Shown here: positions 9,025 through 64,000 of the stretch, piece after piece | How the letters are laid out: each line of letters begins with the position of its first letter | How positions within the stretch are numbered: the first letter of the stretch is position 1 | Origin: Amphiscolops sp. MND2022 | Taxonomy: Eukaryota | Reading direction: 5' to 3' | Assembly: GCA_964187785.1 (NCBI GenBank) | Contig: OZ076409.1 | Span: 41,914,001 to 41,978,000 of the forward strand | DNA length: 64,000 nucleotides | The notes under the pieces: generated by a model | Told to the model about the DNA's origin: nothing | The model's database searches: none | What the model saw: the letters and a program-made list of their open reading frames with translations, nothing else | Position numbers and translations under genes: made by a program

Positions 9025-9178
9025 TATCTTACTGCCAAGAACGAGACGGACAATTTGCTAGTGTGTAACAAGGATACAGAATGGAGCTGTCCAGGGGTGC
9101 ATCAGTGCATACCCATCGAGTGGAGATGTAACCGCAACAAAGACTGTATGAACGGAGCCGACGAGGAAAATTGCGCAG
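9025..9178 (+). CDS. Host gene exon: LDLa module 1 of a multi-LDLa extracellular or receptor protein
   Basis: Acceptor TTTCAG|TAT (phase 0), donor GCAG|GTCGGT (phase 1); encodes [51 protein letters not shown] with 6 Cys and a DCxxGxDE motif; GC-richer than the flanks. Confidence 0.9.
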
Positions 9179-14709: not shown

Positions 14710-14894
14710 ATAACAAGTCTTTTGTCCAGTCAACCAAGTCGTTGTCCCAACTCTGGTATGTGCTCTTTCTGTTGGGCGTTACATCAGGAGTAGCAAAAAT
14801 TTTTATAGTGGAAAATAAAATTTAGTTCCCAAAAGTTGCAAACAAATTGTCGAGAAACAATTGCCAAAACAGAAGGAATATTTTTACGACCCGG
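14220..14894 (+). repeat. ~675-bp direct repeat, copy 1 (copy 2 at 19268-19940)
   Basis: Collinear from CGTTATATCCGG to TTTTTACGACCYGG, roughly 80-85% identity by eye; includes the triple HINE end plus about 185 bp beyond it. Confidence 0.85.
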
Positions 14895-17800: not shown

Positions 17801-18621
17801 ATGTCAGAACCCAGTGGAACAAATCAGAGGCCAATGTTCAAGTTGGAGACTTGGTGTGGTTGGTTGATAACAATGTGAAAAGATCTCATTACAAGATGGC
17901 ACGAATCAAAGAAATATATCCAGCAAAAGATGGTGTAGTGAGATCAGTGCTCATCAAAACTCATGATGGCACCTTCAAACGACCTGTAGTACGCTTGGCG
18001 CCAGTTTTTAATGAGCGTTTTCAATCTGAAAACGGGGCCGGCATTGTTGGCGCCTCAAACGAGATGCAAAAAACTTAGCGAAAAAATAGGTCGATATAGC
18101 CTAACTAAAAGTGCTGTAAAATTGTGTATAAGTGTATTTGAGCGCTAGTTTTCACCCAATCCCAATTATTTGACCCCTAAAAGCTATCCAGACCAAAAAA
18201 GTGAAAATCGAAGAGAAAAGTTTTTCTTTTTGTGTTCTAGGCCCCATTTTTGATTCTTTTTCCAAAATTACTGTAAATTTGGACTTTATTCTTTGCTTAT
18301 TGTATTTAACTTCTTATGAACTCCATATTTGGGCTACATGAGTGTCCGTAGGACCCATGAGGACTGTTTGTGAACTTCGCTGATTATTTAACAGCAAATA
18401 ACACGTGTAGATCTATGCCTTATTCTTGCTTAAATGTATGTTTTTTATATATACTTTTACATGTTTTGGTGTATACCTCCAGTCCAGTTAAATAGTTTGT
18501 TTCTGCTTATTCTATATATCAAGGCGCTTTTATGGTGATGGTAAATTTGACTACAAACAGCCGCCATCAGGTATTTCCTGTATGCTAAAGTAACCAGAGT
18601 TAACTCCTACTAAGACCAACA
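14893..18621 (+). mobile_element. 5'-truncated, decayed Bel/Pao LTR retrotransposon (RT-RNaseH-integrase plus 3' LTR)
   Basis: GERYEVGLLW, WYLPHHPV, ADIESMF, FYMDD, FSDAS, IPRLEL, HLEHNH..CVFC, IDYFGP, SDNGTNF, PHFGGVWE. Deletion near 15425, in-frame stop at 15918-15920, GATAATGG duplication frameshift near 17345. No gag, protease or 5' LTR. Confidence 0.93.
18045..18621 (+). repeat. 3' LTR of Bel/Pao element 1
   Basis: Follows PPT-like AAACGGGGCCGGCA; bounded by inverted termini TGTTGG...CCAACA. No partner LTR to confirm the end. Confidence 0.65.
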
Positions 18622-19267
18622 GCAACCAAGTAGAGATTAAAATCAGTCGACTTTGCTACTCAAGTATTGAAGAAAGTGAAAGCTTGGAAGTTTCTCGTAC
18701 AACTAATTCAGTTAACTCTGGCTATTGAAGGGCTTTTTGGAGTTGAACAAGTGATATTATATTGTTGCGAAATTCCAACGTCAGTTTATTATATTGCATA
18801 AGGTTGCGATATTTTTGCTTGAGAAAGTTATCGTAGACGCAAGGACTTGGACTTATCGTTTGGTTTAGCAGATCAACAACGCTACCCCTCATCGAGGCAG
18901 CTAAGTTGATTCCTATAATCACAATTTAGAGCTCCAAAGCTACTTTATGTTTGTGAAACAGAATAAGTGCAAAGTCAAAGATGCAGTAATTGCTTCACCG
19001 ACTTCCGAAACTTATTCAAAGTAACGCAAGCTAAATTTTCCTTTGAAAATAGTTGCGATATCAACCATTGAAGGTTTTTGAGTAGTGGTTTTGCAAGTGC
19101 CTTTCCTGGACAAATCAGTTGTAAAACTGTCCGCAAGTTGTCAACCAGGCCGTCGTATAGCTTGGTAAGTGTTTTTTGTTAATTTACCTTGCAGACGTAA
19201 AATCCGGCGTGGGTTTTACCCGGAATTCGTTATGTGCGGCTTGCGTCAGATTGGGTATGGGTTATGT

Positions 19268-19940
19268 CGTTATATCCGGTAAACTTTCTTTTGGGTTTTC
19301 GTTATATCCAGTTTGCGTTAAAACAGGTTTGCGAAAAAAATCAAAGGGCGACCGATTGAACTCAAAAGCTGGCGTATGTTTTCTGAAAGCATAACAAAAT
19401 CAACAAAGGGACCCTCTGGTAACATTTGAAATTTTGGGAAAACGTCTCACAGAGCCGAAAAGTACTCAAAGTGTCCCGTTTAGTTTCTTAGATGATATCA
19501 AAATGCGTTGGAAGCTTTTGCTCCAATATTTGTACATTTGCTAAAATTCATGAAAATTGTTAGAAGAGTGGATCACAAAGTGAACTAAGAAACTCTATTC
19601 ACTTATAAGGTCGGGTTTTGTTTCTTACAGAAAAAAACGCTGATAAAAAAACTACCCCGGTAATATTCGGGTATTTTTCGTTAGGACAAAAGGTGCTGTT
19701 TAAAAATATCCACTGTAAGAGTCGTGCACATTTCCGTAGGAAAATGCGCCGACTAAAAATAAGTTTTTTGTCCTTCAACATAGTCGTTCTCCCAACCCTG
19801 GTATGTGCTCCTTCTCCTGGGCGTTACAACAGGAGTGGCAAAAATTTTTATAGTGAAAAGTAAAATTCAGTTCCTGAAAGTTGCACAAAAATTGTAGAGA
19901 AACAATTGCCAAAAACAGTAGGAATATTTTTACGACCTGG
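19268..19940 (+). repeat. ~675-bp direct repeat, copy 2 (contains triple HINE terminus about 19595-19755)
   Basis: Collinear with 14220-14894. Confidence 0.85.
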
Positions 19941-22842: not shown

Positions 22843-25800
22843 AATCAGAAACAAACTGAAACCAAATAATGTTATTCATTCCATCGTTACAATGCGTGTG
22901 TATGTAGTGCGTATAATATAAATTCTTCCTATCAGATCAATCTCTTTTTGCTCAAAAAATAACATAGCAAGATTCGCTTATAACTTTCAACAGAAAATTT
23001 TTACAAGAACTCAACAATTACACAAGAACAAAATCCAAGACAAACATAGCACCCAATAACATCGAAGTACCATATATACAAGTCACCGGACTCAACGGGG
23101 AGAAACTGTACACATCAAAAACAATTTGAGAAATCACGACAAACTACACCACTAGAAAACAAAGCAAAAAGACAGTTCTGTTTTGCAAAAAATAACATAG
23201 CAAGATTCGCTTATAACTTTCAACAGAAAAGTTTTACAAGAACTCAACAATTACACAAGAACAAAATCCAAGACAAACATAGCACCCAATAACATCGAAG
23301 TACCATATATACAAGTCACCGGACTCAACGGGGAGAAACTATACACATCAAAAACAAACTGAGAAATCACGACGATCTACACCACTGGAAAACAAAGCAA
23401 AAAGACAGTTCTGCACGGAGCCGGATACAATCATAGTCGACAGATTGAAACATCTATCAAAAGAACTCCACAGCCCAAAAAAACTATCGCAGACGTTTAA
23501 AAAAGTTACTTGGCAAACCAGAAAAGCTGAAAAAAAATCTGAAACAAACTGAAACCGAATACTTTTATGCATTCCATCGTTACAATGCTGGTGTATGTGG
23601 TGCGTATAATATAAATTCTTTCTATTAGATCAATCTCTTTTTGCTCAAAAAATAACATAGCAAGATTCGCTTATAACTTTCGACAAAAAATTTTTACAAG
23701 AACTCAACAATTACACAAGAACAAAATCCAAGACAAACATAGCACCCAATAACATCGAAGTACCATATATACAAGTCACCGGACTCAACGGGGAGAAACT
23801 ATACACATCAAAAACAATTTGAGAAATCACGACAAACTACACCACTAGAAAACAAAGCAAAAAGACAGTTCTGCACGGAGCCGGATACAATCATAGTCGA
23901 CAGATTGAAACATCTATCAAAAAAACTCCACAGCACAAAAAACTATCACAGACGTCTAAAAAAATATTTGGTAAACTAGAAAAGTTAAAAAATAAATCAG
24001 AAACAAACTTAAACCAAATACTTTTATGCATTCCTTCGTTACAATGCGTGTGTATGTGGTGCGTATAATATAAATTCTTTCTATCAGATCAATCTTTTTT
24101 TGCTCAAAGAATAACGTAGCAAGACTCGTTTATAAAATTCAACAGAAAACTTTTACAAGAACTCAACAGTTACACAAGGACAAAAACCAAGACAAACATA
24201 GCAATCAATAACATCGAAGTACCATTTATACAAGACACCGGACTCGACGTGGAGAAACTATACACATCAAAAACAAACTGAGAAATCACGACGATCTACA
24301 CCACTATAAAACAAAGCAAAAAAAAAGTTCTGCACGGAGGCGGATACAATCATAGTCGACAGATTGAAACATCTATCAAAAGAACTCCACAGCCCAAAAA
24401 AAACTATCGCAGACGTTTAAAAAAGTTACTTGGCAAACCAGAAAAGCTGAAAAAAAAATCTGAAACAAACTGAAACCGAATACTTTTATGCATTCCATCG
24501 TTACAATGCTGGTGTATGTGGTGCGTATAATATAAATTCTTTCTATTAGATCAATCTCTTTTTGCTCAAAAAATAACATAGCAAGATTCGCTTATAACTT
24601 TCAACAAAAAAATTTTACAAGAACTCAACAATTACACAAGAACAAAATCCAAGACAAACATAGCACCCAATAACATCGAAGTACCATATATACAAGTCAC
24701 CGGACTCAACGGGGAGAAACTATACACATCAAAAACAATTTGAGAAATCACGACAAACTACACCACTAGAAAACAAAGCAAAAAGACAGTTCTGTTTTGC
24801 AAAAAATAACATAGCAAGATTCGCTGATAACTCTCAACAGAAAATTTTTACAAGAACTCAACAATTACACAAGAACAAAATCCAAGACAAACATAGCACC
24901 CAATAACATCGAAGTACCATATATACAAGTCACCGGACTCAACGGGGAGAAACTATACACATCAAAAACAATTTGAGAAATCACGACAAACTACACCACT
25001 AGAAAACAAAGCAAAAAGACAGTTCTGCACGGAGCCGGATACAATCATAGTCGACAGATTGAAACATCCATCAAAAAAACTCCACAGCACAAAAAACTCT
25101 CACAGACGTCTAAAAAAATATTTGGTAAACTAGAAAAGCTAAAAAATAAATCAGAAACAAACTTAAACCAAATACTTTTATGCATTCCTTCGTTACAATG
25201 CGTGTGTATGTGGTGCGTATAATATAAATTCTTTCTATCAGATCAATCTTTTTTTGCTCAAAGAATAATGTAGCAAGACTCGTTTATAAAATTCAACAGA
25301 AAACTTTTACAAGAACTCAACAGTTACACAAGGACAAAAACCAAGACAAACATAGCAACCAATAACATCGAAGTACCATTTATACAAGACACCGGACTCG
25401 ACGTGGAGAAACTATACACATCAAAAACAAACTGAGAAATCACGACGATCTACACCACTATAAAACAAAGCAAAAAAAAAGTTCTGCACGGAGGCGGATA
25501 CAATCATAGTCGACAGATTGAAACATCTATCAAAAGATCTCCACAGCCCAAAAAAAACTATCGCAGACGTTTAAAAAAGTTACTTGGCAAACCAGAAAAG
25601 CTGAAAAAAAAATCTGAAACAAACTGAAACCGAATACTTTTATGCATTCCATCGTTACAATGCTGGTGTATGTGGTGCGTATAATATAAATTCTTTCTAT
25701 TAGATCAATCTCTTTTTGCTCAAAAAATAACATAGCAAGATTCGCTTATAACTTTCAACAAAAAATTTTTACAAGAACTCAACAATTACACAAGAACAAA

Positions 25801-28800
25801 ATCCAAGACAAACATAGCACCCAATAACATCGAAGTACCATATATACAAGTCACCGGACTCAACGGGGAGAAACTATACACATCAAAAACAATTTGAGAA
25901 ATCACGACAAACTACACCACTAGAAAACAAAGCAAAAAGACAGTTCTGTTTTGCAAAAAATAACATAGCAAGATTCGCTTATAACTTTCAACAGAAAATT
26001 TTTACAAGAACTCAACAATTACACAAGAACAAAATCCAAGACAAACATAGCACCCAATAACATCGAAGTACCATATATACAAGTCACCGGACTCAACGGG
26101 GAGAAACTATACACATCAAAAACAATTTGAGAAATCACGACAAACTACACCACTAGAAAACAAAGCAAAAAGACAGTTCTGCACGGAGCCGGATACAATC
26201 ATAGTCGACAGATTGAAACATCTATCAAAAAAACTCCACAGCACAAAAAACTATCACAGACGTCTAAAAAAATATTTGGTAAACTAGAAAAGCTAAAAAA
26301 TAAATCAGAAACAAACTTAAACCAAATACTTTTATGCATTCCTTCGTTACAATGCGTGTGTATGTGGTGCGTATGATATAAATTCTTTCTATCAGATCAA
26401 TTTTTTTTTGCTCAAAGAATAACGTAGCAAGACTCGTTTATAAAATTCAACAGAAAACTTTTACAAGAACTCAACAGTTACACAAGGACAAAAACCAAGA
26501 CAAACATAGCAACCAATAACATCGAAGTACCATTTATACAAGACACCGGACTCGACGTGGAGAAACTATACACATCAAAAACAAACTGAGAAATCACGAC
26601 GATATACACCACTATAAAACAAAGCAAAAAAAAGTTCTGCACGGAGGCGGATACAATCATAGTCGACAGAGTGAAACATCTTCAAAAGAACTCCACAGCA
26701 CAGGGAAAATTAGCACAGACGTTTAAAAAATTTACTTGGCAAACAAGAAAAGCTAAAAAAAAAACAAAACAAGAAACAAACTGAAACCGAATACTTTTAT
26801 GCATTCCATCGTTACAATGCGTGTGTATGTGGTGCGTATAATATAAATTCTTTCTATCAGATCAATCTCTTTTTGCTCAAAAAATACCATAGCAAGATTC
26901 GTTTATAACTTTCATCAAAAAACCTTTACAAGAATTCAACAAATACACAAGAACAAAAACCAAGACAAACATATCACCCAATAACATCGAAGTACCAAAT
27001 ATAGAAGTCACCGGACTTGACGGGGAGAAACTATACACATCAGAAACAAACTGAGAAATCACGACGATCTACACCACTATAAAACAAAGCAAAAAGAAAG
27101 TTCTGCACGGAGCCGGATACAATCTAGTTGACAGTGACAACATCTATCAGAAAAACTCCACAGCACAAAAAACTATCACAGACGTTTGAAATTTACTTGA
27201 TAAACCAAAAAAATTTTTAAAAAAAATCAGAAACAAACTGAAACCGAATATTTTTATGCATTCCATTGTTACAACGCGTGTGTATGTGGAGCGTATTATA
27301 CAAATTCTTTCTATCAGATCAATCTCGTTTTGCTCAAAGAAAAGTATAGCAAGATTTGTTTATAACTTTCAACAAAAAACTTTTCAAGACTTCAACAAAC
27401 ACACAAGAACAAAAACCAAGACAAACATATCACCCAATAATATCGAAGTACCATATATACAAGACCCCGGACTCCACGGGGAGAAACTATTCAAATCAAA
27501 AACAAAGTGAGAAATCACGACGATCTGCCCCTTTAGAAAACAAAGCAAAAGGACAGTTCTGCACGTAGCAGAATACAATCAGAGTCAACAGATTGATATA
27601 TTTATCAAAAAAACTCGACAGCACAAAAAACTATTACAGACGTTTGAAAATTTACTTGCCAAACCAAAAAAATTTAAAAAATCAGAAACAAACGGAAAGC
27701 GATTACTTTTATGCATTCCATCGTTACAAGGCTGGTGTATGTGGTGCGTATAAAATAAATTCTTTCTATCTGATCAATCTCGTTTTGCTCATAGAATAAC
27801 ATAGCAAAATTCGTTGATAACATTCAACAGAAAATTTTTACAAGAACTCAACAATTACACGAAATAAAAAACCAAGACAAACATAGCACCCAATAACATC
27901 GAAGTACCATTAATACAAGACTACAAGACACCGGACTCGACGGAGAGAAACTATACACACCAAGAACAAACTGAGAAATCACGACAATCTACACCACTAG
28001 AAAACAAAGCAAAAAGACAGTTCTGCACGTAGCCGGATACAATTAGAGTCGACAGATTCATACATCTATCAAAAGAACTCCACATCACAAAAAAATATCA
28101 CAGACGTTTAAACAATTTACTTGGCAAACCAGAAAAACTAAAAAACAAATCAGAAACAAACTGAAACTGAATACTTTTATGCATTCCATTGTTACAATGC
28201 TGGTGTATGTGGTGCGTATAAAATAAATTGTTTCTATCAGATAAATCTTTTTTTGTTCAAAGAACAACTTAGTAAGGTTCGTTCACAACTTTCAACAGGA
28301 ATCTTTTACAAGAACTCAACAATTACACAAGAACAAAAACCAAGACAAACTCAGCACCCAATAACATCGACGTCCATATGAAGAAGACACCGGACTCGAC
28401 GGGGAGAAACTATATACATCAAAAACAAACTGAGAAATCACGACGATCTACACCACTAGAAAACAAAGCAAAAAGACAGTTCTGCACGGAGCCGGATAAA
28501 ATCAGAGTCGACAGATTGAAACATCTATCAAAAGAACTCCACAGCACAGGGAAAACTAGCACAGACGTTTGAAAAATTTACTTGGCAAACAAGAAAAGCT
28601 AAAAAAAAGAAACCAGAAACAAACTTAAACCAAATACTTGTATGCATTCCATCGTTACAATCCGTTTTTATAAGGTGCGTATAATATAAATTCTTTCTAT
28701 TAGATCAATCTCGTTTTGCTCAAAGAATAGCATAGAAAGACTCGTTTATAACTCTAAACAGAAAACTTTTACAAGAACTCAACAATTACACAGGAACGAA

Positions 28801-31800
28801 AACCAAGATAAACATAGTACTCAATAACATCGAAGTCCAAATAAAGAAGACACCGGGCTCGACGGGGAGAAACTAAACACATCAAAAACAATCTGAGAAA
28901 TCTCACGACAATCTACACCACTAGAAAACAAAGCAAAAAGACAGTTCAGCACGGAGCCGGATACAGTTAGAGTCGACAGATTGAAATATCTATTGAAAGA
29001 ACTCCACAGCACAAAAAACTATCACAGACGTTTAAAAAAATATTTGGTAAACTAGAAAAGCTAAAAAACAAATCAGAAACAAACTTAAACCAAATACTTT
29101 TATGCATTCCTTCGTTTCAATGCGTGTGTATGTGGTGCGTATAATATAAATTCTTTCTATCAGATCAATCTTTTTTTGCTCAAAGAATAACGTAGCAAGA
29201 TTCGTTTATAACATTCAACAGAAAACTTTTACAAGAACTCAACAGTTACACAAGGACAAAAACCAAGACAAACATAGCAACCAATAACATCGAAGTACCA
29301 TTAATACAAGACTACAAGACACCGGACTCGACGGAGAGAAACTATACACACCAAGAACAAACTGAGAAATCACGACAATCTACACCACTAGAAAACAAAG
29401 CAAAAAGACAGTTCTGCACGTAGCCGGATACAATTAGAGTCGACAGATTCATACATCTATCAAAAGAACTCCACATCACAAAAAAAATATCACAGACGTT
29501 TAAACAATTCACTTGGCAAACCAGAAAAACTAAAAAACAAATCAGAAACAAACTGAAACTGAATACTTTTATGCATTCCATCGTTACAATGCTGGTGTAT
29601 GTGGTGCGTATAAAATAGATTGTTTCTATCAGATCAATCTTTTTTTGTTCAAAGAACAACTTAGTAAGGTTCGTTCACATTTTTCAACAGGAATCTTTTA
29701 CAAGAACTCAACAATTACACAAGAACAAAAACCAAGACAAACTCAGCACCCAATAACATCGACGTCCATATGAAGAAGACACCGGTTTCGACGGGGAGAA
29801 ATTATATACATCAAAAACAAACTGAGAAATCACGACGATCTATACCACTAGAAAACAAAGCAAAAAGACAGTTCTGCACGGAGCCGGATAAAATCTGAGT
29901 CGACAGATTGAAACATCTGTCAAAAGAACTCCACAGCACAGGGAAAACTATCACAGACGTTTAAAAAATTTACTTGGCAAACAAGAAAATCTAAAAAAAT
30001 AAACCAGAAACAAACTGAAACCGAATACTTTTACGCATTCCATCGTTACAATCCGTGTTTATAAGGTGCGTATAATATAAATTTTTTCTATTAGATCAGT
30101 CTCGTTTTGCTCAAAGAATAGCATAGAAAGATTCGTTTATAACTCTAAACAGAAAACTTTTACAAGAACTCAACAATTACACAGGAACGAAAACCAAGTT
30201 AAACATAGTACGCAATAACATCGAAGTCCAAATAAAGAAGACACCGGGCTCGACGGGGAGAAACTAAACACATCGAAAACAATCTGAGAAATCACGACGA
30301 TCTACACCACTAGAAAACAAAGCAAAAAGACAGTTCTGCACGTAGCCGGATACAATTAGAGTCGACAGATTCAAACATCTATCAAAAGAACTCCACATCA
30401 CAGAAAAACAATCACAGACGTTTAAACAATTCACTTGGCAAACCAGAAAAACTAAAAATCAAATCAGAAACAAACTGAAACTGAATACTTTTATGCATTC
30501 CATCGTTACAATGCTGGTGTATGTGGTGCGTATAAAATAAATTGTTTCTATCAGATCGATTTTTTTTGTTCAAAGAACAACTTAGTAAGGTTGGTTCACA
30601 ACTTTCATCAGGAATCTTTTACAAGAACTCAACAATTACACAAGAACAAAAACCAAGACAAACTCAGCACCCAATAACATCGACGTCCATATGAAGAAGA
30701 CACCGGTTTCGACGGGGAGAAACTATATACATCAAAAACAAACTGAGAAATCACGACGATCTATACCACTAGAAAACAAAGCAAAAAGACAGTTCTGCAC
30801 GGAGCCGGATAAAATCTGAGTCGACAGATTGAAACATCTATCAAAAGAACTCCACAGCACAGGGAAAACTATCAGACGTTTAAAAAATTTACTTGGCAAA
30901 CAAGAAAAGCTAAAAAAATAAACCAGAAACAAACTGAAACCGAATACTTTTACGCATTCCATCGTTACAATCCGTGTTTATAAGGTGCGTATAATATAAA
31001 TTTTTTCTATTAGATCAGTCTCGTTTTGCTCAAAGAATAGCATAGAAAGATTCGTTTATAACTCTAAACAGAAAACTTTTACAAGAACTCAACAATTACA
31101 CAGGAACGAAAACCAAGTTAAACATAGTACGCAATAACATCGAAGTCCAAATAAAGAAGACACCGGGCTCGACGGGGAGAAACTAAACACATCGAAAACA
31201 ATCTGAGAAATCACGACGATCTACACCACTAGAAAACAAAGCAAAAAGACAGTTCTGCACGTAGCCGGATACAATTAGAGTCGACAGATTCAAACATCTA
31301 TCAAAAGAACTCCACATCACAGAAAAACAATCACAGACGTTTAAACAATTCACTTGGCAAACCAGAAAAACTAAAAATCAAATCAGAAACAAACTGAAAC
31401 TGAATACTTTTATGCATTCCATCGTTACAATGCTGGTGTATGTGGTGCGTATAAAATAAATTGTTTCTATCAGATCGATTTTTTTTGTTCAAAGAACAAC
31501 TTAGTAAGGTTCGTTCACAACTTTCATCAGGAATCTTTTACAAGAACTCAACAATTACACAAGAACAAAAACCAAGACAAACTCAGCACCCAATAACATC
31601 GACGTCCATATGAAGAAGACACCGGTTTCGACGGGGAGAAACTATATACATCAAAAACAAACTGAGAAATCACGACGATCTATACCACTAGAAAACAAAG
31701 CAAAAAGACAGTTCTGCACGGAGCCGGATAAAATCTGAGTCGACAGATTGAAACATCTATCAAAAGAACTCCACAGCACAGGGAAAACTATCACAGACGT

Positions 31801-33220
31801 TTAAAAAATTTACTTGGCAAACAAGAAAAGCTAAAAAAATAAACCAGAAACAAACTGAAACCGAATACTTTTATGCATTCCATCGTTACAATCCGTGTTT
31901 ATAAGGTGCGTATAATATAAATTTTTCCTATTAGATCAATCTCGTTTTGCTCAAAGAATAGCATAGAAAGATTCGTTTATAACTCTAAACAGAAAACTTT
32001 TACAAGAACTCAACAATTACACAGGAACGAAAACCAAGTTAAACATAGTACTCAATAACATCGAAGTCCAAATAAAGAAGACACCGGGCTCGACGGGGAG
32101 AAACTAAACACATCGAAAACAATCTGAGAAATCACGACGATCTACACCACTAGAAAACAAAGCAAAAAGACAGTTCTGCACGGAGCCGGATACAGTTAGA
32201 GTCGACAGATTGAAATATCTATTGAAAGAACTCCACAGCACAAAAAAAACTATCACAGACGTTTAAAAAAAAATTTGGTAAACTAGAAAAGCTAAAAAAT
32301 AAATCAGAAACAAACTGAAACCAAATACTTTTATGCATTCCTTCGTTACAATGCGTGTGTATGTGGTGCGTATAATATAAATTCTTTCTATCAGATCAAT
32401 CTTTTTTTGCTCAAAGAATAACGTAGCAAGATTCGTTTATAACATTCAACAGAAAACATTTACAAGAACTCAACAGTTACACAAGGACAAAAACCAAGAC
32501 AAACATAGCAACCAATAACATCGAAGTACCATTTATACAAGACACCGGACTCGACGTGGAGAAACTATACACATCAAAAACAAACTGAGAAATCACGACG
32601 ATCTACACCACTAGAAAACAAAGCAAAAAGACAGTTCTGCACGGAGCCGGATACAATCAGAGTCGACAGATTGAAACATCTATCAAAAAACTCCACAGCA
32701 CAAAAAAACTATCACAGACGTGTAAAAAGTTTTCTTGGCAAACCAAAAAAGCTAAAAAATAAATCAGAAACAAACTGAACCCGAATACTTTTATGCATTC
32801 CTTCGTTACAATGCGTGTGTTTGTGGTGCGTATAATTTAAATTCTTTCTATCAGATCAACCTCTTTTTGCTCAAAGAATAAAATAGCAAGATTCGTTTAT
32901 GACTTTCAACAGACAACTTTTACAAAACTCAACAATTACACAAGAACAAAAACCAAGACAAACATAGCAACCAATAACATCGAAGTACCATTTATACAAG
33001 ACACCGGACTCGACGGGGAGAAACTATACACATCGAAAACGAACTGAGAAATCACAACAATGTACACCACTAGAAAAGAAAGCGAAAAGACAGTTCTGCA
33101 CGGAGTCGGATACAATGAGAGTCGACAGGTTGATACATCTATCAAAAGAACTCCACAGCACAAAACAACTATCACAGACGTTTAAAAAATTTACTTGGGA
33201 AACCAGAAAAGCTACAAAAT
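22843..33220 (+). repeat. 10.4-kb tandem array (satellite) of about 21 monomers of ~460 bp, three carrying an internal ~232-bp duplication; higher-order structure; Gypsy-gag-derived
   Basis: Marker TTTTATGCATTCC recurs about every 456-469 bp (about 692 bp for the three long variants); strongly A/C-rich + strand; monomer encodes RQFCTEPDxIxVDRLKHLSKEL, similar to Gypsy gag at 61350. Confidence 0.97.
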
Positions 33221-34000
33221 ACCCGAATGAAAACAAATCAATAAACAAAACAAATACAAGACAAGAAAGACGAAAACTGCAGATTGTGCGGTAAAACAAC
33301 GATACTAATGCTAAAAATGAATTTTTCTGCAGAACCAGACCACCAGCGAGATTTAGTGAAAACCATAACCTGAGGATGACATAGAATTTTAAAAGAGTAT
33401 AAACGGTTTGTTTGAATGACGAACTAACAAAGCAACCTTGCATTGCACACTATCCTGGAGAGAAAAGTTGCACCCGAGTTTTGACCGATAACATCAACGC
33501 CTATCCAACCAAAATCGTGGTAACACAATGCCAACAGCAAACTAACGGAGACCTAAAATTGGTCGCATTTGCTGGCAGATTCCTTAATGAAGCAGAGAAA
33601 AATCGGAGATTTAGAGTTTTTGGTGGTCGTCTAGTGTATCAAAAGCTCTAATTTCGGTTCCACTGCAAACAAGTGAATTTATATTCCGACCAACAAACTT
33701 TCAAACTACTACTAAAAACAAGCTGGAAATGATTAATATAGCGCAAGCCTGCACGGTGTTGGGACAGATTGATCCAATTCATCACATGATTGAACACTGC
33801 AGCCAGAAAGCCGATTGAAAAGCCAATTCACTTACTTTTCAAGCAGAAACCTGACGTATGAAGCTGTTCAGGAGCAGAAACTTGGAAAACAATTGCAGTT
33901 GCAAATCTAATCAGCACAACAACAAACAATGTTGATACACACTGGCAAAAAAGCACGACTGCTACGTGCACACAATTCAACGGTTAAAATTACGCACGGT
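33221..34000 (+). pseudogene. Highly decayed Gypsy gag/pol remnant continuing from the satellite
   Basis: KKDENCRLCGK zinc-knuckle remnant (~33263-33295), then RNase H-like LTKQPCIAHY..LKLVAFAGRFLNEAEK (ORF 33412-33651). Confidence 0.7.
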
Positions 34001-34668
34001 CGTTTCATATTATTCGCATGCGAGTTGAGTTATACACACGGAAAAAGTTTTTAAATTATCTTACAAATGATAATACCGCTGAATTTACCACGAGAAGCAA
34101 CAAAATATATTAACGGGAAAAATCACAAAAAATGAAAAAATCACAATTTCTCGATAAATACGGCACATTTGAATGCACTGGGGTGCCATTCAGAGGACTG
34201 TGAGATTAATCAAATCCCTTAAAGAGTCACATTTAAGCAGAGCTATGTTGAACATGCGGCGAAATCAAACTTGGCTAGACGCGGACACACTTCAAGAAGT
34301 CCTCAAGTCGGGAATTACCCGTACCAAGCAGACTAAAAAATGACCGATAAAATGAAACAAATCGATGTCAACTTGAAATTGAGAATTTGTGACGTACGTC
34401 GCTTAACTACGTGAAGACATCACAATTTTTCTGGGGCAGTACTTGTCGGTACACCAAAATCGATAAAATCCGACAAAACGGTGTTTTCATTCCAGAGATT
34501 GTTCATTTTACATCGTGTTGCTAACAAATTATCAAAATCAACTATGGGACGATCATTCGCGTGAGCAATTTATCTGAACATAATTCAGTATGAAGGCCAA
34601 TAGTTGTTTACCAAAAACTTTATTTGACCCAAAGACTTTGATGCTTTCCATCCTCATATATATAAGGA

Positions 34669-35459: not shown

Positions 35460-36021
35460 TGTTGAGGAAAAGAACGTGTCAAATTTCTGGAGCTATAAAA
35501 CTTAAACTTTGTTAATTATAAAAGCTCAAAATCGAGAAGAAACAAACTAACCTGATATGTCAGCAAACTTCAAGTTGTTCGAGCAATGAATTAAATGATG
35601 GTGCTAGCTGAATCTGATTATTTGTTGATGTTTAACCTTTCAAGTTCCACCTGTGGAAAGTATCGTAAATATCAAACATCTGACTCCCAACTATGATCTC
35701 AAAATTGGAAAATGAAACGATTCTGAAGTTCATGATTGTTGCATTGAAGTATCACAATTTTCATGATGGTGTGATGGAAAATTCCTTCCAGAATATTCAA
35801 TTGTAAAAGTCAAGGAAATGCTCATCCGCCTTTTTCCAAAGTCTCCGACTTTTAACAAATGTCATGTTTATTTTTTGGCGTTTAAATACCCAGTGCTTCC
35901 CACAATTTTTCACAGTGCTCAACCACTGAAAATGCGTTCCAAGCTAATTTTAAAATTTACTCTTTTCTAATTGTCTTTCTAAACAAAAGTCTTCACTGCT
36001 CAGCCAAGTCCTAGCTTAATA
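35460..36021 (+). repeat. Copia 5' LTR
   Basis: Aligns with 40578-41139 and 44032-44585; directly followed by the PBS. Confidence 0.88.
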
Positions 36022-39000
36022 GGTTATGGGGCCCAGTGAAAGACAATTAAGATAAACAGTTTCTTTTTCTTTGCGCTTGTTGTCGTGAAGATCTCTGGTT
36101 TGAGGAAACCGCAACTATTCTCAGTGTGATTGCATATGATAAATAGTTCCTAGTAGGGTGCGGGAATTCATTAGAACACACTTCACTTGAACGGACCTTC
36201 GTGAGCAAGACTGTCTCATGGCGGCAGGCTAATAAGCTGAAGTTAAATACTGTGTCCTTCAGTGAAGTTTAAAGTACACCAGGCGTTTCAAAAGTCAAAA
36301 TGGAAGGCTCAAATTTAAATCTCAAATGGCTCTGCTTCTCTGGCCTGACTCAGGACTACGCAACCTGGTGTGCTAGAATTCAAGTCTTTGCTCAAACGAA
36401 AGGCCTATTCGACACGCTCACTAGCGATGATCGACCACCAACCCAACCCGCGCAGCTTGGGAACGACTCAACTAATGAAGCCCGCGCTGCTCACGATGCA
36501 GCTCCGCTCCAGAAGTTCATATACGTGCTCTTGATGACATCGAGAACTCTAAAAACACAATGTGGTGTTACCTTGCGATGGTTCTCGATTCAACAAGCCT
36601 GATGTTGATCAGGCATGATTGTGTTGACTGCAATGGCCTCGTTGATGGTCAAAGGCATGGGGGCTTCTGCAAGAAAGGTTCCGAAGCAATGAAACAGTGA
36701 CTGTAGTCAGTGTGTTTAGGCAACTCGCTCGTTTGACGCTGAGAGAAGACGAGGCACTCCACAATCCTTTTATAAGAACCCAAGAGCTCTCAACTCGCAT
36801 GGAACAAGAAGCGGAACATCTATCGGAGCTACTGCTCGATTCAAGGGTACTCAGTGGCTTACCTGAGCGCTATGAGCACTTCATTGCGCACGAGAGCCTC
36901 AATCCTGCTGGTAGCTTCGTGGAGGTTCGAACACGGACGACCAACTACGGAGTGAGTTGTCTACACCGCGAATCTGTGGATGATGTGGATTCACATGTGG
37001 CGATGACGTCCAAAAAGGCCAGGCCTACGCACAAGCCAAGTAAATATAACGCAGCGCCTGAGTCAAGTTCTCGACAGCTAACATGCTACTGTTGCGGCAT
37101 GAAAGGCCACATGAAAGCAGAGTGTTATAAGAGAGAAGCTGAATGTACTTTTTTAAGCAAAACGGCCAATTTGAAAAACAAAAACGAGCTCAAAGGAGGC
37201 AAGCACGGAAGTTAAGCATCAAGTCTCAAGTTAAAAGAATCAAGCGAGGCAACAGTTGAAGACTTAGTAGTGGACTCATGAAGTACAGACCATGTAATAT
37301 TGAACAAAAACTGGTTCAAAAACTTGAAAGAAGTAGATACTACAGACACCAATCCTGAAGGGGTAACACAAAAGTCCTAGGAATAAGAGAAGTCGAGGTC
37401 CGAGCTCGAAACGTAAAACGAAAGATAAACCTTCAGTCTTTTGAAAAACCTTAGATGTGCCAGGATCCTGAACTAACTTGATCTCGGTATCCAGTATTGT
37501 AGACAATAGACACAACGTAGTTCATGACGCGAAAAACAGTTTCCTTTGCCTCAAAAGGAAAGGGAAATTCCTCATCAAAAGAAAAGGAAATCTTCTTCCT
37601 AAGTATGATCCCGAAGCAAGAAAACTTATTGTTAATTTGAGTGGGGGGTCAAACGAAGTACAACTATGGCACTAAGTTTCGGACATGTAAATTACAAAGA
37701 CCTGTAAAACTCTCTGTTGAAAAACCTGATAGAGGTAGATGCAAAATGCGAACCTTGCTGCTCAGCCAAAATAACCAAAACGCCTGTCCCAAAACAAAAA
37801 GACAATAAAGCCTCAAAACCTGGTGAAAGGGTTTGCAGCGATGTTGTTGGACCTATCACTCCATCAAGTAAAGGTGGGATTAGATACTTCGTCACGTTCA
37901 TTGGCGAATACAGTTCGCATTTTTTTGTGAAGTTCATGCGTCACAAAAATCAAGTTCTGCAAAAGTTCAAAGAGTACTTTGCTGAATGCGGTACGCAACG
38001 TTTACACCGGTCTAACAATGGAACCGAAAATAGTAACAAAAATATCACGAACTTTTGTACCAACATTAAAATCAAACGAGAATCAAACGGAACCCCGGAA
38101 CAAACTGGTGTCGCAGAGCGATACAATCAAACTGTTGTAGAGACCGATCGAAGTTTCTAATCGAATCAATACTTCCAAAATGCTACTGGCTCAGAGCTGT
38201 AGACACTGCAGCTTATGTAAGGAACCGGACCAAAAAAGACAAAGGAGAGAAGACTCCTTTCGAAAAACTTTGGGCAGAAAACCCAAACAGATCACTTGAA
38301 AGTTTTCGGTTGTCTAGCATACGTAAAAAATAGAAAGCGTCAAAATTTCACCCGGATGCACGGAAACTTGTTTTCCTTGGCCACAATGGCACCTGTACGG
38401 CCCACCTGTTGCAAGACTTTGAAACTAGAAAATTGAGACGAGCTCGCAACGTCGTGTTCATTGAAAACAGAGTAGTTGGATTCACCAACGAAACAAGAGA
38501 AGACGAAAATGATAATCTTCTCTTCGAGGTAACTTTCGACGATGAACTTGAGCAAAGCTTAATGAACTTAACACAAGTAAATAACAAGGGTCCTGAAGTT
38601 GAAGTGAAAGTTGAAAACGCCACCGATGAAAAATTTCATCGAGTAGCGAATTTGAAAATTATGTTGACACGACTACTACAAGAATTCCTAACTCAGAAGT
38701 TTATGTTCAGGTTGTAACGCCCAGTAGGTCAGATCAAGTATTCCCTGCAAGACCGTCAAGAATTGCTTTCCTACTGGAACGCTTCAAAGATCAAGTGATA
38801 TTCGGCAATTTCCTCAGGTCGTAAAACCAAAAATTAAAGAACCCAGTACATTGAAACTAACTAGACAATACTTGAAAATTGCTATCAGAGCGAAATTGTG
38901 TTAGATGAGAGACTGGACAAATACTATGAGATGAAAGATGCAAGAAGAGAAGCTAATGAGCTAAAGCGAGAGGAGAAGTCACGAAATCCTCCTCAAAGGT

Positions 39001-40577
39001 ATGGCCAAAGTTACAGCCATGACTCAACGTTATTTCCGAAAGAACCTGGAACCTACAATCAAGCAATAAGTTCTTGTGAAAGAGAGAATTGGCCGCAAGC
39101 AATGCAGGATGAGTTCAAGTCTTTGAACGAAACTAACACATGGACGTTAGTTGAGCCTCCAAAGAACAAAAATATAATCCCGTGAAAATTTGTTCTCAAA
39201 GTCAAAAGTAAAGCCGACGGAGACTTGAAAAAAACAAGGCGCGTTATGTAGCCGAAGGTTTTAAGCAAATTCAATGTTTAGACTATTCAGAAACAGTTGC
39301 TCCAACGAGCAAACAAGAAGTTTTTCGGATCATTCTTTCGTTAGCAGCGAAACAAGACTTTACGCTAAAGCAAATGGATGTTAAGTCAGCCTCCTTACAT
39401 CCAAAAATCGAAGAAGATATATACCTCGAGCCAGCCACTGGCTTTGAGGAAACAGGTAGCTCTGGAAACAAGCTTGTCTGTAAATTGAACAAATCAATCT
39501 ACGGACTGAAGCAGGCCGCTAAAAATTGGTATGAGGAGTTAGTGAACTGCCTTATACAGCAAAGTTTTTGCCGTAGCAAAAATGACTACTGTCTTTTATT
39601 AAAAAAACAAGACAAAAGAAAGTTGTACGTTCTAAGTTGGGTAGATAATTCAGTAATAGCAGGTAGCAACGATGAGGACGTAGAGGATGTAAAGAAATCT
39701 CTTGAAAAAAAATTCAAGATGAACAAACTTGAAAGGTTCTTAGGCATGCAAATAAGTTAAAGAAGAGACAAAATACGTGACCAGGGAACATATATTGAGA
39801 GCGCCATAGAGAAATTTAGCATGCAAAACCGCAATCCTTCGAAAATCCTGAGAACAATATGAGATTATTTAAGGCAACTGAGATTGAAATATTGGTCGAT
39901 GAGAGACTATACGGAAGTTTGGTAGGGTCCTTACTTTACATAGCCAAGCAAACAAGGCCAGATATAGTATGGATTGTCAATGTGGTCTCTCGCTTTATGG
40001 ACAAACGGACTAACACTCACTGGCTGACTGGTAAACGTGTCCTCCGCTATCTTCAAGCCACGAAGTCACTCAAAGTGGTCTACTCATGAGACAGTGACTT
40101 CATTCCATGATGAAAAACAGTCGACCACTGGCTACTTCTTCAAGCTTGGATTAGTTGGGGGAGCAGTAAAATGGCATTTCAAGAAGCAGCAGACAGTGAC
40201 ACTCTCATCATGCGAAGCCGAATATCAAGGTCTAGCTGATGCAGTGCAAGAAGCAACCGTCTCGCAATCACGCTTGCGTGAAATGGGTTATGAACAATCC
40301 CAGCCAACTATTATTAGGGAAGACAATCAGAGTTGCATCAAGCTGACAACTAACCCTGTCATGCACAAGCGATCAAAACAAATTAACACGAAGTTTCACT
40401 TCATACGGGAGAAAATTGATGACAATTCAATTCAACTAGTCTATACGCCAACTGATCAACTGGCAGCAGATCTGTTGACAAAGGCACTACCACAAGTGAA
40501 AGTGGAGCAACATCGAAAGCAATTTTTGGGTTGAATGCAAATTGTTCTTACGACATCCTGAACAATCTGAGTGGGGG

Positions 40578-41139
40578 TGGTTAGGAAAAGAGCTTGTCAA
40601 ATTTCTTGAGCTATAAAACTTAAACTTTCATATTATAATAGCTCAAAATCGAGAAGAAACAAACTAACATGATATGTTAGCGAACTTCAAGTTGTTCGAG
40701 CAATGAAATAAATGATGGTGCCAGCTGAATCTAATTATTTGTTGATGTTTAACCTTTCAAGTTCAACCTGTCGAAAGTATCGTAAATATCGATTATTTGA
40801 CTCCCAATTATCACTTCAAAATTTGTAAAATGAAACGATTCTGAAGTTCATGATTATTGCATTGAAGTATCACAATTTTTCATGATGGTGAGACGGAATA
40901 ATCCTTCCAGATTATTCGATTGTAAAAGTCAAGGAAATGGTCATCCGCGTTCTTCCAAAGTACCCCACCTTTAACAATGTTAATTTTTTTTGGAGTATAA
41001 ATACCCGGTGCTTCCCTTAATTTTTCACAGCGCTCATCCACTGAAACAGTCTTCCAAACAAATCTTCTAATTAACTGCTTTTTTTAATTGTCTTTCTGAA
41101 CGAAAGTGTTCACTGCTCAGCCAAGTCCTAGCCTAATCA
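40578..41139 (+). repeat. Copia 3' LTR
   Basis: Follows PPT; termini TGGTTAGG...CCTAATCA. Confidence 0.88.
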
Positions 41140-42104
41140 ATTAAAATTTGTTGAATGTGTGTTCGGATGGAATCACCTTGAAAAGTCGATGAAAACTAAA
41201 GAGAACAGATTGGTTCGCAAGTTAATTTAAGTCAAATTTAGTATGATAACTCATAGTTGAGTTAACTTAAAAGGGGATTTCTTAATCTTTACTCTTCCGT
41301 GAAATACCCGAATCTTAGTGAAGCGAAGCCGATATATTGTATAGTATCACTTTTGTTATAGCAAAGTCAAAATAATAAACAATTTGAGGTTTCGATGGAT
41401 CTCGGTCTTCTTTGATCCGTGACTTTCCGCGAACCAGACGTTGAAAGGTATACAACAGGGATTAACAAAAATTACAACCGAATTAAAAGAAACGTCACGC
41501 CCCTGGCAGACTTGTGTTGATAGTTTTTAGTTGACAGCAGATAAAAAAAGAAGATGCAAAAACATCCAAGATTTAATTTCATCGAATAAAATTACGGAAA
41601 TCTACCAAATTCTATGAAAATCAATTGCAACCCTTAAAAATTGGGTAAAGTGCGAGGGTCTTTTCTCCACAACCCAAAAGCACAACCTCTCCCAAGTCTG
41701 GTTGGGGGCCTAGAAGTTCCCAACTCCATCGGGTTCCACTGTCTTAAAGCACTCAATAAAAGCCGCATCAATTGTAAGCAATTGTTCTCGAATTCCCAAA
41801 AAGCACTGATTCAAATTTATATAAGAGAGTTACTTCAAAAAACATGGTTTCAAAAAACCAAAATTCGCTCACTTGACCCGCAATCTCTACTTTCTATAAA
41901 CTTGATGCAAAAAATGTATGAGCCCGAAGGTCCCCCTTGTGGATTTTTCACAATTGAAAAACGCTTCTCTCAAAGCAAGTGTAGAAACCACTTTTCAGAC
42001 CTTTCTGAACTTCTTGTTTTTCCAATTTGAAAAAAATCCATACTTGAAGTTTTTGTACAAGACAGTTTTTAATCTATGCAACGTAGGACATCTTGTTTCA
42101 TGGA

Positions 42105-43539: not shown

Positions 43540-44031
43540 GTGAGACAGTGACTTCATTCCATGATGAAAAACAGTCGACCACTGGCTACTTCTTCAAGCT
43601 TGGATTAGTTTGGGGAGCAGTAAAATGGCATTTCAAGAAGCAGCAGACAGTGACACTCTCATCATGCGAAGCCGAATATCAAGGTCTAGCTGATGCAGTG
43701 CAAGAAGCAACCGTCTCGCAATCACGCTTGCGTGAAATGGGTTATGAACAATCCCAGCCAACTATTATTAGGGAAGACAATCAGAGTTGCATCAAGCTGA
43801 CAACTAACCCTGTCATGCACAAGCGATCAAAACAAATTAACACGAAGTTTCACTTCATACGGGAGAAAATTGATGACAATTCAATTCAACTAGTCTATAC
43901 GCCAACTGATCAACTGGCAGCAGATCTGTTGACAAAGGCACTACCACAAGTGAAAGTGGAGCAACATCGAAAGCAATTTTTGGGTTGAATGCAAATTGTT
44001 CTTACGACATCCTGAACAATCTGAGTGGGGG

Positions 44032-48231: not shown

Positions 48232-48468
48232 AGTGCGTGGAGGATTTCTGGGAGCTGAAGTGTCCAGGGGTGGAAGAATGCATGAAGGTATACGACTTCT
48301 GTGACGGGGCGTTCCAGTGCTCGGATGGGAGCGACGAAGCTGTCTGTGACGACCCTGACTTCGTGTGCCCCACCGACAAAATGTACTCAGACTACCTCTT
48401 CCAGTGCCACAACACGCACAGGTGCATCGAAGTGGCTTGGCTTGGAGACGGAATGGATGACTGTGGGG
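48232..48468 (+). CDS. Host gene exon: LDLa module 2 and most of module 3
   Basis: Acceptor CTTTCTTGCAG|AG (phase 1, completes GAG with the exon ending at 9178); donor GGG G|GTTAGT (phase 1); encodes CVEDFWELKCPGVEECMKVYDFCDGAFQCSDGSDEAVC..CPTDK..FQCHNTHRCIEVAWLGDGMDDCG. Confidence 0.93.
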
Positions 48469-59555: not shown

Positions 59556-59815
59556 ACGGCGAAGACGAAGACCTGACGACCCTGGAATCCATGGTGGGCA
59601 AGTACCCGAGTAACATGTACGCATGTGGCAATGACTCACACCAGCACATAATGGCCGGATGGGAGTGTGACTCATACAAGAACTGCGCCAATGGCTTCGA
59701 TGAGTTGAACTGTCAGCAGAACCGCACTTGTACTAAGAATTTCTACCTGTGCGAGGAGGGTTACAGCTGCATCATGGATAACTTTCTGTGTGACGACTTT
59801 TTGGATTGCGTAAAT
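59556..59815 (+). CDS. Host gene exon: end of LDLa module 3, module 4 and most of module 5
   Basis: Acceptor TTTAG|AC (phase 1, G+AC=GAC gives DDCG-D-GEDE, completing the LDLa acidic motif); donor AAT|GTAAGT (phase 0); encodes ..YACGNDSHQHIMAGWECDSYKNCANGFDELNC..TCTKNFYLCEEGYSCIMDNFLCDDFLDCVN. Confidence 0.92.
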
Positions 59816-60986: not shown

Positions 60987-63900
60987 TGTTACCGATAATC
61001 ACGCGTTGGTGAAGATCTTCTATCTTTATTGGGTAATTGTATAACCGAGGGTATATGAAGTTAGTTATGATAAAAGAAACGATTGTTATATTCGGTTCAT
61101 ACCGGCTTGACCTCTACCGTAAATTCGGATACCAGCAGTCTAGAAGCTAGGAGTTGTTTACCAACAAACTCTAAATAGACTCTCATACCATACATACGTT
61201 TATACTTTTGTTTTGGTTATAATACAGTGATACAAACGTAGATCTATCTCTTTTAACAATTTCCTTTTCTCTTAACCTATATCCCTAGAATAGAACATGG
61301 CGCAGTCAGCCGATTTTTAAACTGTGTAAACCCTTCATAACGGAAAACAATGGCTGAAAGAAATACCGTCCCAAACCTAGAAACAAAAGCCACAGACGGA
61401 AACCCAGTATTTACACCGAGACAATGGCTTGAAAGGTTCCGGCAGTTTTGTAAACGGGAACACAAAATCGATATTACCCCATTACTGAAAGGAGAAAATA
61501 TTACGGACGCAAATTGGAACGGAAAAGAACAAGCCGTACAAGAAGATTTCATATGGGGAGTGGGACCGGAAGCACTATACCAAATAACCAGGGCCGAATA
61601 TAAAACGGAACCCGACAGTATAAAAGTGAAGGACCTAATCCGGTTATTCACCGAATTCTACATGCCGAAACGAAACACTTACCACAACCGAGGCGACTTC
61701 TTTTGGGCAAAGCAAACCGAAGATGAGACACCGGATGAATTCTGGAGACGACTAATTGAAATCGAAAAAGAGTGTAACTTTAATGCAATATCAGCCGAAG
61801 AATTGTTGATATCAAAATACATGACCGCAATCACCGATAAAAAACTACGGGACAAAATAATGAAAGAAAAAACGCTGGAACTGAAGAAAATAATCGAACT
61901 GATCAAACAAAATACATACGAAAAAAAGAATAAAAAGAACACAATACCGGAAGTTTTGATATCAACAAAAGAAAAACACATGATAAAGGAAGAACCAATA
62001 CAAAGAATGGAACGATTCGGTAACAGACCGAAAAATAAAAACAACGGAAACCGTACATGCAGCTTTTGCAATGCTCCAAACTGGACACCGATGCACAAAT
62101 GTCCCGCACTAGAAGCGAACTGCAACAAATGCGGAAAGAAGGGACATTACGCAAAAGCATGCAGACTGAAATTCAATAACAACCGAACAGTGAAAAGACT
62201 AACCGAAGAAGAAATGAACGAACCGGACGAATCAACAAGCGAATCAGACGAGAGTATACACCACATAAAAGAAATCAAGAAGATAAATGAAATGAACAAA
62301 CACTTTACAGCGGTAGTACGAGTTAACGGGGTAAAGAAAGAATTCATAATTGACACCGGATCACCCATTTCAATTATGCCACCCGACGAAAGAATTATAA
62401 AATCAACCGAAATTCAGAAAATAACCAACCGATACCAAGATGTGAACAAAAACGAAGTGAAATTCCGGGGAAAAATTCCGGTAAACATCGAACATGAAAA
62501 TAATAATCAAAAAATGGAAATCCTAATAACCGAGAGAACAGATATAACACCATTACTCGGTATGGACTGGATGAAGAAATTCAAACTGACAATCAGAAGA
62601 ATACAATTAGCCGAGAACAACCAATCAGAACGCGAGAAAATATTTAACAAATTTCCGGATCTATTTGAGAACAACGACACAATCAAAGATACCGAAATAA
62701 ATATCCAATTAAAACCTGGACACTACCCGGTAAAACAAAAAGCTAGACCGATACCACTACATCTACAGGAAGATGTTGGAAGGGAATTAGAAAAAGTAAT
62801 AAAATCCGGACATTTGGAAAAAGTAAAAGACGTAGACGAAGATTGCTTCGTATCACCGGTGGTAATAACCGTGAAGAACGATAAATCGGTGAAAATAGCT
62901 CTGGACTCACGCAAATTAAATGACAGCTGTATTAAAATGAGACCGCACATGCCGAAAATGGAAGAACTGTTAAACCAAATTTCGGTAGAAATAACACGTG
63001 ACCGAACACTACAACTATTCATGTCAAAGATCGACTTGGATTATGCGTACGGCCAAATGAAATTGTCCGAAGAAACAAGCAGACAATGCGTATTCACATT
63101 AACCGGAGGAAAATTCAGTGGATACTACCGGTTTAAAAAAGGTTTCTACGGCCTGTACACCGGCTTGGCTAGACGATATTATCGTGGTAACCCGAGGAAA
63201 CAAACAAGACCACGAGAAAAAGTTATTCGAAATACTGATTAAACTAGAAAAAGCCGGGTACCGAGCAAGTAAAAAGAAATCCGAATTCTTCATGAACCGC
63301 ACAAAATGGCTGGGACACGAAATTGATGAAAACGGAATTAAACCGAACGAAGAAAAAGTGGAAGCAATATCAAAATTAAAACCACCGGAAAATACAAAAG
63401 AACTAAAATCATTTCTCGGAGCAATACAATACATGGCAAAATATCTACCAAAACTGTCGGAGCGGGACGATAGATTGAGAAAATTACTCTAAAAGAATGA
63501 ACAGTGGAAATGGGGACCGGAACAAGAAACGGATTTTAACCGAATAAAACAAATGCTTACCGAAGGCCCATGCTCGGCACACTACGCAAAAGAAAAAGAC
63601 AATATAGTGACAACCGACGCCAACACAACCGGGCTGGGAATAACACTCTGGCAAAAACAAAATGACGGAAATACAAAACCGATAGCGTACGGAAGCAGAT
63701 ATTTGAATGAAACCGAAAAGAAATTATCAGAGGGCGAATTGGAATTATTGGCGGTAGTGTGGGGATTAGAGAAACTCCGATTTTATCTATACGGGAAGAA
63801 AGTTCACCTATACACCGACCACCAAGCATTGGAACCACTCATAAAAAGAAACCGAAGTAATAAACAATACAGCGCGAGATTGACAAGGTGGTTAGACCGC

Positions 63901-64000
63901 CTAACGCATTTTGATATATCAATACAACATATCGCAGGCAGTAATTTGAAATTTACCGATTATCTCAGCAGGAATCCGGTAGGGGGAGCTATACCGGAAG
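60987..64000 (+). mobile_element. Ty3/Gypsy (Mag-like) LTR retrotransposon, 5' part, running off the window
   Basis: 5' LTR ends ...GAACA at 61297 (start TGTT at ~60987 uncertain); PBS TGGCGCAGTC (tRNA-Ser-like); single gag-pol frame from 61350. Confidence 0.93.
61350..64000 (+). pseudogene. Gypsy gag-pol, recently disabled
   Basis: Two zinc knuckles (CSFC..HKC, CNKCGKKGHYAKAC), protease IDTGS, RT KIDLDYAYGQ / FYGL / WLDD, RNase H TDA..ELLAVVWG..TDHQAL; frameshifting deletion near 63155 and stop at 63490-63492. Confidence 0.92.

Follow-up and report, generated by a model that had tools for sequence, protein, structure and literature searches.

In the genome of Amphiscolops sp. MND2022, a tandem array of 21 units lies within a stretch of 64,000 nucleotides (C1:41,914,001-41,978,000 of the 1.07-Gb assembly; hereafter the window, whose numbering is used throughout). 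The array is best read as a single-locus repeat of the end of a long terminal repeat (LTR), a broken primer-binding site (PBS), and the start of gag of a Gypsy retrotransposon. It probably goes back to one local duplication in a dead element, likely grew by unequal exchange, and likely has no function. The anatomy of the units, the remaining parts of the element that follow the last unit in collinear order, the single locus, the layered higher-order repeats, and the mosaic units are directly visible in the DNA. The core of the original prediction, that an LTR-end/PBS/gag segment of an old Gypsy copy was amplified in place about 21 times, holds, while several of its particulars had to be revised as described below.

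The array and its higher-order blocks are located as follows.
22843..33215, + strand: tandem array of 21 units of ~460 bp; 10,373 bp, 44% A on the + strand
22953..23413, + strand: first unit with a 233-bp internal duplication (from the LTR end to the start of the second gag piece)
23539..26769, + strand: young higher-order repeat; a 1154-bp block present twice (1130/1154 matches), preceded by a related two-unit block
29543..32304, + strand: young higher-order dimer run, units 14-19; units 15-16 match units 17-18 at 918/919 bases

The ~21-copy tandem monomer first noted at 22843 was recovered by Tandem Repeats Finder (23186-33213, period 460, copy number 21.7) and by an anchor motif with 21 occurrences from 22882 to 32801. 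The units are arranged exclusively head-to-tail. Anchor spacings are mostly 455-469 bp; those of 692-693 bp in units 1, 4, and 6 are due to an extra 233-bp piece in each. This internal duplication, which joins two similar short words, recurs in the units at 24567-25027 and 25721-26181. The median difference between the 21 units is 12.0% (range 0-17.2%, 210 pairs), which is not compatible in time with the snapshot of satellite birth that had been proposed; the real newborn stages are other loci of the genome and not the 21-unit array. The nearest neighbour switches along the length of units 13, 15, and 19, and an 8-bp duplication is common to units 10 and 13, a pattern expected from exchange between units. 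Variants between units are distributed over codon positions 1/2/3 as 26/16/17, without an excess at third positions, and C>T/G>A changes show no CpG-type excess (10/30 vs 46/131 sites). An Rfam search of the array returned no match.

Each unit comprises, in this order, ~120 bp of the 3' part of an LTR, a PBS remnant, a leader, an N-terminal piece of gag, and a second gag piece, with the same gag layout in all 21 units. The parts of the last unit have the following positions.
32765..32883, + strand: LTR 3' part; begins at the AACAAACT motif, which is found in LTRs of the related Gypsy clade
32884..32894, + strand: PBS remnant
32979..33038, + strand: gag N-terminal piece (IEVPFIQDTGLDGEKLYTSK)
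33085..33198, + strand: second gag piece (KRQFCTE...FTW); 125 nt (net) lost before it

A search of the assembly with the DNA of a whole unit gave 33 short matches (74-92% identity). Seven of the eight matches examined were situated at the gag start of Gypsy elements with open reading frames; the eighth was in a decayed copy. The related elements are 5.9 kb long with LTRs of ~205-240 bp, two of them containing single frames of 1845 and 1853 amino acids, and these living relatives carry the segment equivalent to the unit once. The core of the PBS (its first 8-9 bases) is absent in 21/21 units, the first and the last included. A pattern search for the priming tRNA in the assembly returned mostly elements and did not find the tRNA, and a purine tract was not recognisable before the LTR part of the unit.

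Neither for the N-terminal nor for the second gag piece did any of 2000 shuffles reach the score obtained against a clade gag. The N-terminal piece shares 68-82% of its nucleotides with 10 placed clade copies, and the second piece 59-65% with eight of nine placed copies of the sister clade and 56% with the ninth; this comparison was an ungapped scan, which misplaced one further copy in both tests and covered one copy fewer for the second piece. A further Gypsy element is located at the end of the window.
61083..64000, + strand: young Gypsy element of a cousin family (LTR 61083-61297, PBS, gag-pol)
This 61-kb element had been placed from 60987 onwards, but its LTR spans 61083-61297. L083, another copy of the same family, was misplaced by the ungapped scan, and the values for this family were read from the window element instead. 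The KRQFCTE gag match first seen with the 61-kb element withstood the comparison with shuffled sequences: a 21-amino-acid stretch of a natural unit beats 1997 of 2000 shuffles against the window gag, and the same stretch beats all 2000 against the gag of the closer family. As had been stated, the differences to the window gag are mainly at third positions (8/11/19 at codon positions 1/2/3). The second gag match claimed further upstream (FQDFNKHT...) is a chance similarity, reached by 186/2000 shuffles and not reported by BLASTP. The frame is also out of order, being situated upstream of the piece with the true gag start (32979-33038).

The LTR part, ~120 of ~215 bp, starts inside the LTR and crosses the LTR end; it is the weakest link in the collinearity of unit and element. 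The AACAAACT motif at the unit start is visible in many clade LTRs, and gag and LTR share the word AACAAA at the unit junction. The resemblance to an LTR end and PBS that had been noted before is retained insofar as, among 528 window tiles, the highest score for six of the seven units tested belongs to the LTR at 61083-61297. However, the mean score of the unit LTR part against 18 natural clade LTRs reaches only z 0.4-2.2. Pairwise tests against seven elements with 214-bp-type LTRs were mostly not significant.

Behind the last unit, the element continues as a decayed single copy.
33206..33295, + strand: single-copy continuation of gag with a trace of the first zinc knuckle (weak)
33412..33800, + strand: RNase H remnant, frameshifted; protease and reverse transcriptase lost upstream of it
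34158..34477, + strand: scraps of the spacer and the integrase region, in order (weak: E 0.006, E 1.1)
34586..34660, + strand: 3' LTR remnant of the relic, cut by another repeat beginning near 34668

Using two intact polyproteins as tblastn queries, the knuckle trace, RNase H, the spacer scraps, and the integrase scrap were found collinear behind the last unit. The Gypsy RNase H debris previously described after the last monomer was detected with an E-value of 2e-15 in tblastn and of 0.004 with Pfam RT_RNaseH_2, the latter below the cut-off of that family. The zinc knuckle CRLCGK is in the right place, but weak on its own (E 0.29-5.9). For the 3' LTR remnant, the score against the LTR at 61083-61297 is reached by 1/1000 shuffles, and that against the start of unit 20 (20/24 bases) by 25/1000. 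One unit and the tail together represent 1903 bp left of a ~5.9-kb element, in which the order LTR, PBS, gag, RNase H, integrase, LTR is kept, the integrase and knuckle traces being weak. Since the last unit is continued by RNase H, integrase scraps, and the 3' LTR remnant, we conclude that the array grew inside one decayed Gypsy copy. On the other side of the array, a reading of the left flank as U3 or as an additional, decayed unit was not supported.

The 61-kb element is a cousin rather than the parent of the array. The second gag piece is 42% identical to its family on the nucleotide level, compared to 56-65% for the sister clade, and the relic branches off on its own in the RNase H tree, outside the clade (support 96/94) to which the 61-kb family belongs. 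The RNase H of the relic is 59-68% identical to that of 22 relatives. Within the relic (32765-34660), gag is nearer to the sister clade and the LTR nearer to the 61-kb family. The parent may represent an extinct intermediate or recombinant lineage. Searches with the tail and with a unit peptide, and an examination of 30 sequence stretches, revealed no close living parent.

The whole-unit DNA search did not return the array itself and has, therefore, no bearing on its uniqueness; motif patterns were used instead. With up to 2 and 3 mismatches permitted, two unit motifs gave 18 and 19 hits across the assembly, all of them within the array; arrays diverged beyond 2-3 mismatches would escape this search. 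The 20 best matches of the unit peptide in the assembly are all located in the array, and the best match outside has an E-value of 6e-4. What had been called a satellite is, according to the genome-wide motif mapping, an array at a single locus rather than a dispersed family: strictly defined, satellite families have many copies in long arrays or at several loci, compared to 21 units at one locus here. Satellite-type higher-order repeats and exchange among units are present. One unit arranged head-to-tail, whose order follows a single segment of an LTR element from a point inside the LTR across its end, corresponds to the retrotransposon-derived tandem repeats known from the maize CRM elements, and the array is a further repeat of the same kind as maize CRM1TR and CRM4TR. 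A whole LTR per unit, an intact primer site, and dispersed copies, as in tandem arrays of terminal-repeat retrotransposons in miniature (TRIMs) or tandems with a shared LTR, were not found.

CRM1TR and CRM4TR are tandem repeats, each derived wholly from one Ty3/Gypsy element, and originated independently from similar regions (Sharma, Wolfgruber and Presting 2013; PMC3648361). They share with the present array a unit reaching from inside the LTR past the LTR end, the restriction to one or two loci, and internal sub-repeats (PMC3648361). Their units end in the untranslated region (UTR), are 97-98% like their living parents, and are centromeric (PMC3648361), whereas the unit described here reaches gag, has no close living parent copy, is likely intronic, and is followed by the rest of the element and its 3' LTR. 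Satellite units with Gypsy gag are represented by rye E3900 and the Cereba gag-related repeat of Aegilops/wheat (PMC3648361, PMC9659126); these are large chromosomal plant satellite families, in contrast to a 10-kb single locus still inside its parent. Head-to-tail LTR and internal sequences at one site also occur in the shared-LTR tandems of rice (PMC11899658) and Drosophila (PMC5932611) and, at one insertion site, in tandem-array TRIMs such as Cassandra (PMC7215508). Both contain the whole LTR and the whole internal part, whereas in the array unit the LTR is incomplete, the primer site is broken, and a purine tract before the LTR part is not recognisable. The Ogre-derived satellites of Lathyrus likewise comprise short arrays within LTR elements, with expansion at some loci, but every element there carries the array, which transposition disperses (PMC7004042); the living relatives here have the segment once. 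Further retrotransposon-derived repeats, including gag-containing ones of plants and LTR-derived ones of animals, are compiled in reviews (PMC9659126). Literature searches, with most subscription papers outside their reach, listed no animal array with a unit of LTR part, PBS, and gag, which is weak evidence.

Younger tandem loci of the same clade were identified with primer-site patterns (560 matches, 263 of them listed; the listed loci were assessed by eye). Among the matches listed, 7 of 254 clade primer-site loci are accompanied by copies on the same strand at a distance of no more than 8 kb; 13 loci were examined in all, including some that other searches had brought up. At four of these younger loci, the duplication starts inside the LTR (54, 87, 91, and ~190 bp before its end) and ends in gag or pol.
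C3:42.17 Mb (L070, C3:42,163,000-42,172,900): 915 bp twice, 99.6% identity; covers LTR end, primer site, and gag; both LTRs of the element are identical (241 bp)
C3:64.09 Mb (L051, L066): 1163 bp three times, 96-98% identity; LTR-end/PBS/gag unit with a 6-of-7 microhomology junction
C3:31.80 Mb: duplication of 4.6 kb, 96% identity
C10:51.38 Mb (L081, 51.376 Mb): 591 bp twice, 99% identity; ends in the LTR, internal region gone

At C10:51.38 Mb, what remains of a copy belonging to the 61-kb family is LTR-PBS-gag with an LTR attached, twice. The junction at this locus contains a 25-nt filler of short repeats, and its gag end is close to the end of the array unit. At six loci (seven duplications), the start lies in flanking DNA. 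Two tandems of whole Gypsy elements, apparently with one LTR in common, were found at C4:28.21 Mb and L083 (L075-L076 and L083). Within the window, positions 40087-46983 hold a 3453-bp tandem duplication (99.2%) that is unrelated to the array and spans the end of an LTR element, an LTR-like repeat, and Gypsy debris. Tandem duplications are frequent in the genome, and any preference for the LTR is modest at most.

The array probably arose in four steps. A Gypsy copy would have decayed by many deletions, and a duplication would then have joined gag to the inside of the 5' LTR over the short common word AACAAA. Unequal crossover or conversion between sister or homologous copies would have multiplied the unit, before recent block duplications created the 1154-bp and dimer repeats. 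Losses in the primer site and gag that are common to the units, together with the same decay in the single-copy tail, suggest that amplification took place after the death of the element. Retrotransposition would not be expected of a unit whose primer site is broken. The frequency of local tandem duplication in this genome is in line with such a start.

Several observations weigh against this sequence of events. The left end of the element is lost, so that the first event is not directly visible: the 5' LTR part is not recognisable in the left flank (254 and 436 of 1000 shuffles; 21/300), a target-site duplication was not found around the relic, and the similarity of the 3' LTR remnant to unit 1 is not significant (345/1000 shuffles). 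The junction word AACAAA is A-rich and could be shared by chance, and the common deletions could have been spread by homogenisation after, not before, the first duplication. In addition, 4 of 11 duplications start inside the LTR compared to 1.44 expected (P 0.036), in a test that is post hoc and based on a small, mixed sample; the count leaves out the shared-LTR tandems C4:28.21 Mb and L083 as well as C2:63.26 Mb. An indifferent duplication process does not predict such an excess. Tentatively, and with considerable doubt, the LTR-end/primer-site/gag segment of this short-LTR Gypsy clade might be regarded as a recurrent array seed in an animal, with breakpoints drawn into the LTR; a single genome would then display all stages from 915 bp twice in a brand-new element via 591 bp twice and 1163 bp three times to the present 21 copies with their higher-order repeats.

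The start proposed for maize CRM, a deletion running from the UTR as far as the LTR downstream, fits the younger locus at C10:51.38 Mb (PMC3648361). It does not fit the array, because pol remnants and the 3' LTR are still present behind it. Compatible starts are a duplication or a shared-LTR tandem trimmed by deletion (cf. PMC5932611). In the latter case, the first two-copy state would have come from a tandem of two complete elements with one LTR in common; a deletion would have taken out everything from gag to inside the middle LTR, followed by the same later growth. Shared-LTR tandems do occur in this genome (C4:28.21 Mb, L083), deletions are abundant in the relic, and McGurk and Barbash read internal-to-internal tandems of Drosophila LTR elements as trimmed shared-LTR tandems (PMC5932611). 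Nevertheless, this route requires two events instead of one and left no direct trace in the array, and the LTRs of the element with the 915-bp duplication are identical, which leaves little time for two steps; we consider it unlikely.

Alternatively, the unit might stem from reverse transcription, in which gag and primer site were copied into the LTR end of one RNA before a jump back into the gag of the other RNA. The insertion would then have carried two units from the beginning, and later deletions would have been homogenised. The four younger loci starting inside the LTR and ending in gag or pol (4/11 vs 1.4 expected) and the microhomology at the C3:64.09 Mb junction are in favour of such a route. 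The LTR-start test, however, is post hoc, small, and drawn from loci of mixed routes, and one of its four loci, C10:51.38 Mb, is a deletion from gag to the 3' LTR with filler, a DNA-level event. Considering also that the primer site is broken in all array units, the first and last included, an origin by reverse transcription seems distinctly improbable compared to a duplication in the dead element.

The surroundings of the array contain predicted exons of a host gene.
9025..9178, + strand: predicted LDLa exon upstream of the array
48232..48468, + strand: predicted LDLa exon downstream of the array; its splice phase fits 9025-9178 and 59556-59815
59556..59815, + strand: predicted LDLa exon

More predicted LDLa exons are located near 81.8 and 88.4 kb (window coordinates). 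Judging from the compatible splice phases of the predicted exons on both sides, the array likely lies within an intron of up to 39 kb, in agreement with the intronic site originally assumed. This position between predicted exons on the same strand, with LTR sequence in each unit, might suggest that the array was kept for a function, either as a source of small RNAs against the Gypsy clade or in tuning how the LDLa gene is transcribed or spliced; transcripts of CRM4TR occur in maize (PMC3648361). Such a role would be highly improbable: the units are 18-41% diverged from living gag, which makes them a poor guide sequence, and the single locus, the strict head-to-tail order, the neutral-looking variation without an excess of CpG-type C>T/G>A changes, and the missing Rfam match all speak against it. 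That the array or its near-identical blocks are an assembly artefact, as the 7 of 210 unit pairs differing by ≤2% could imply, can practically be dismissed in view of the 12% median difference, the stable common variants and small insertions, and the unique, orderly ends.

The predicted host gene (exons 9025-9178, 48232-48468, and 59556-59815; L090) encodes many LDL-receptor class A repeats and has very long, repeat-filled introns. Two single-exon relatives show 75-79% and 57% identity, and protein searches yielded no full-length orthologue. Three other LTR elements are found in the window. An element on the - strand at 54999-59381, which judging by its motifs resembles BEL/Pao, has two identical 189-bp ends and a 1327-amino-acid frame and is inserted between predicted LDLa exons. 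An older element at 14220-19940, presumably BEL/Pao-like, has 680-bp ends at 82% identity and broken pol frames, and a decayed element at 35465-41137, presumably Copia-like, has 560-bp ends at 87% identity. A near-perfect palindrome of 174 bp (97.7%) is situated at 2109-2282, and a second one of 70 bp at 2306-2375.

Taken alone, the array is probably neutral filler in a large intron, and retrotransposons are already established as a source of tandem repeats, mostly from plants. It is a clean animal example in which the array still resides inside its parent, so that the origin of the unit, the junction, and the order of events can be read. The added value lies in the four younger loci, where the same unit of LTR part, PBS, and gag is present two or three times, in a genome in which ordinary duplications are frequent. 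Together with these loci, the array forms a natural series in which it can be asked whether LTR-crossing segments seed arrays more often than other DNA. If this segment were indeed a recurrent seed, the earliest steps of satellite origin would become countable and testable.

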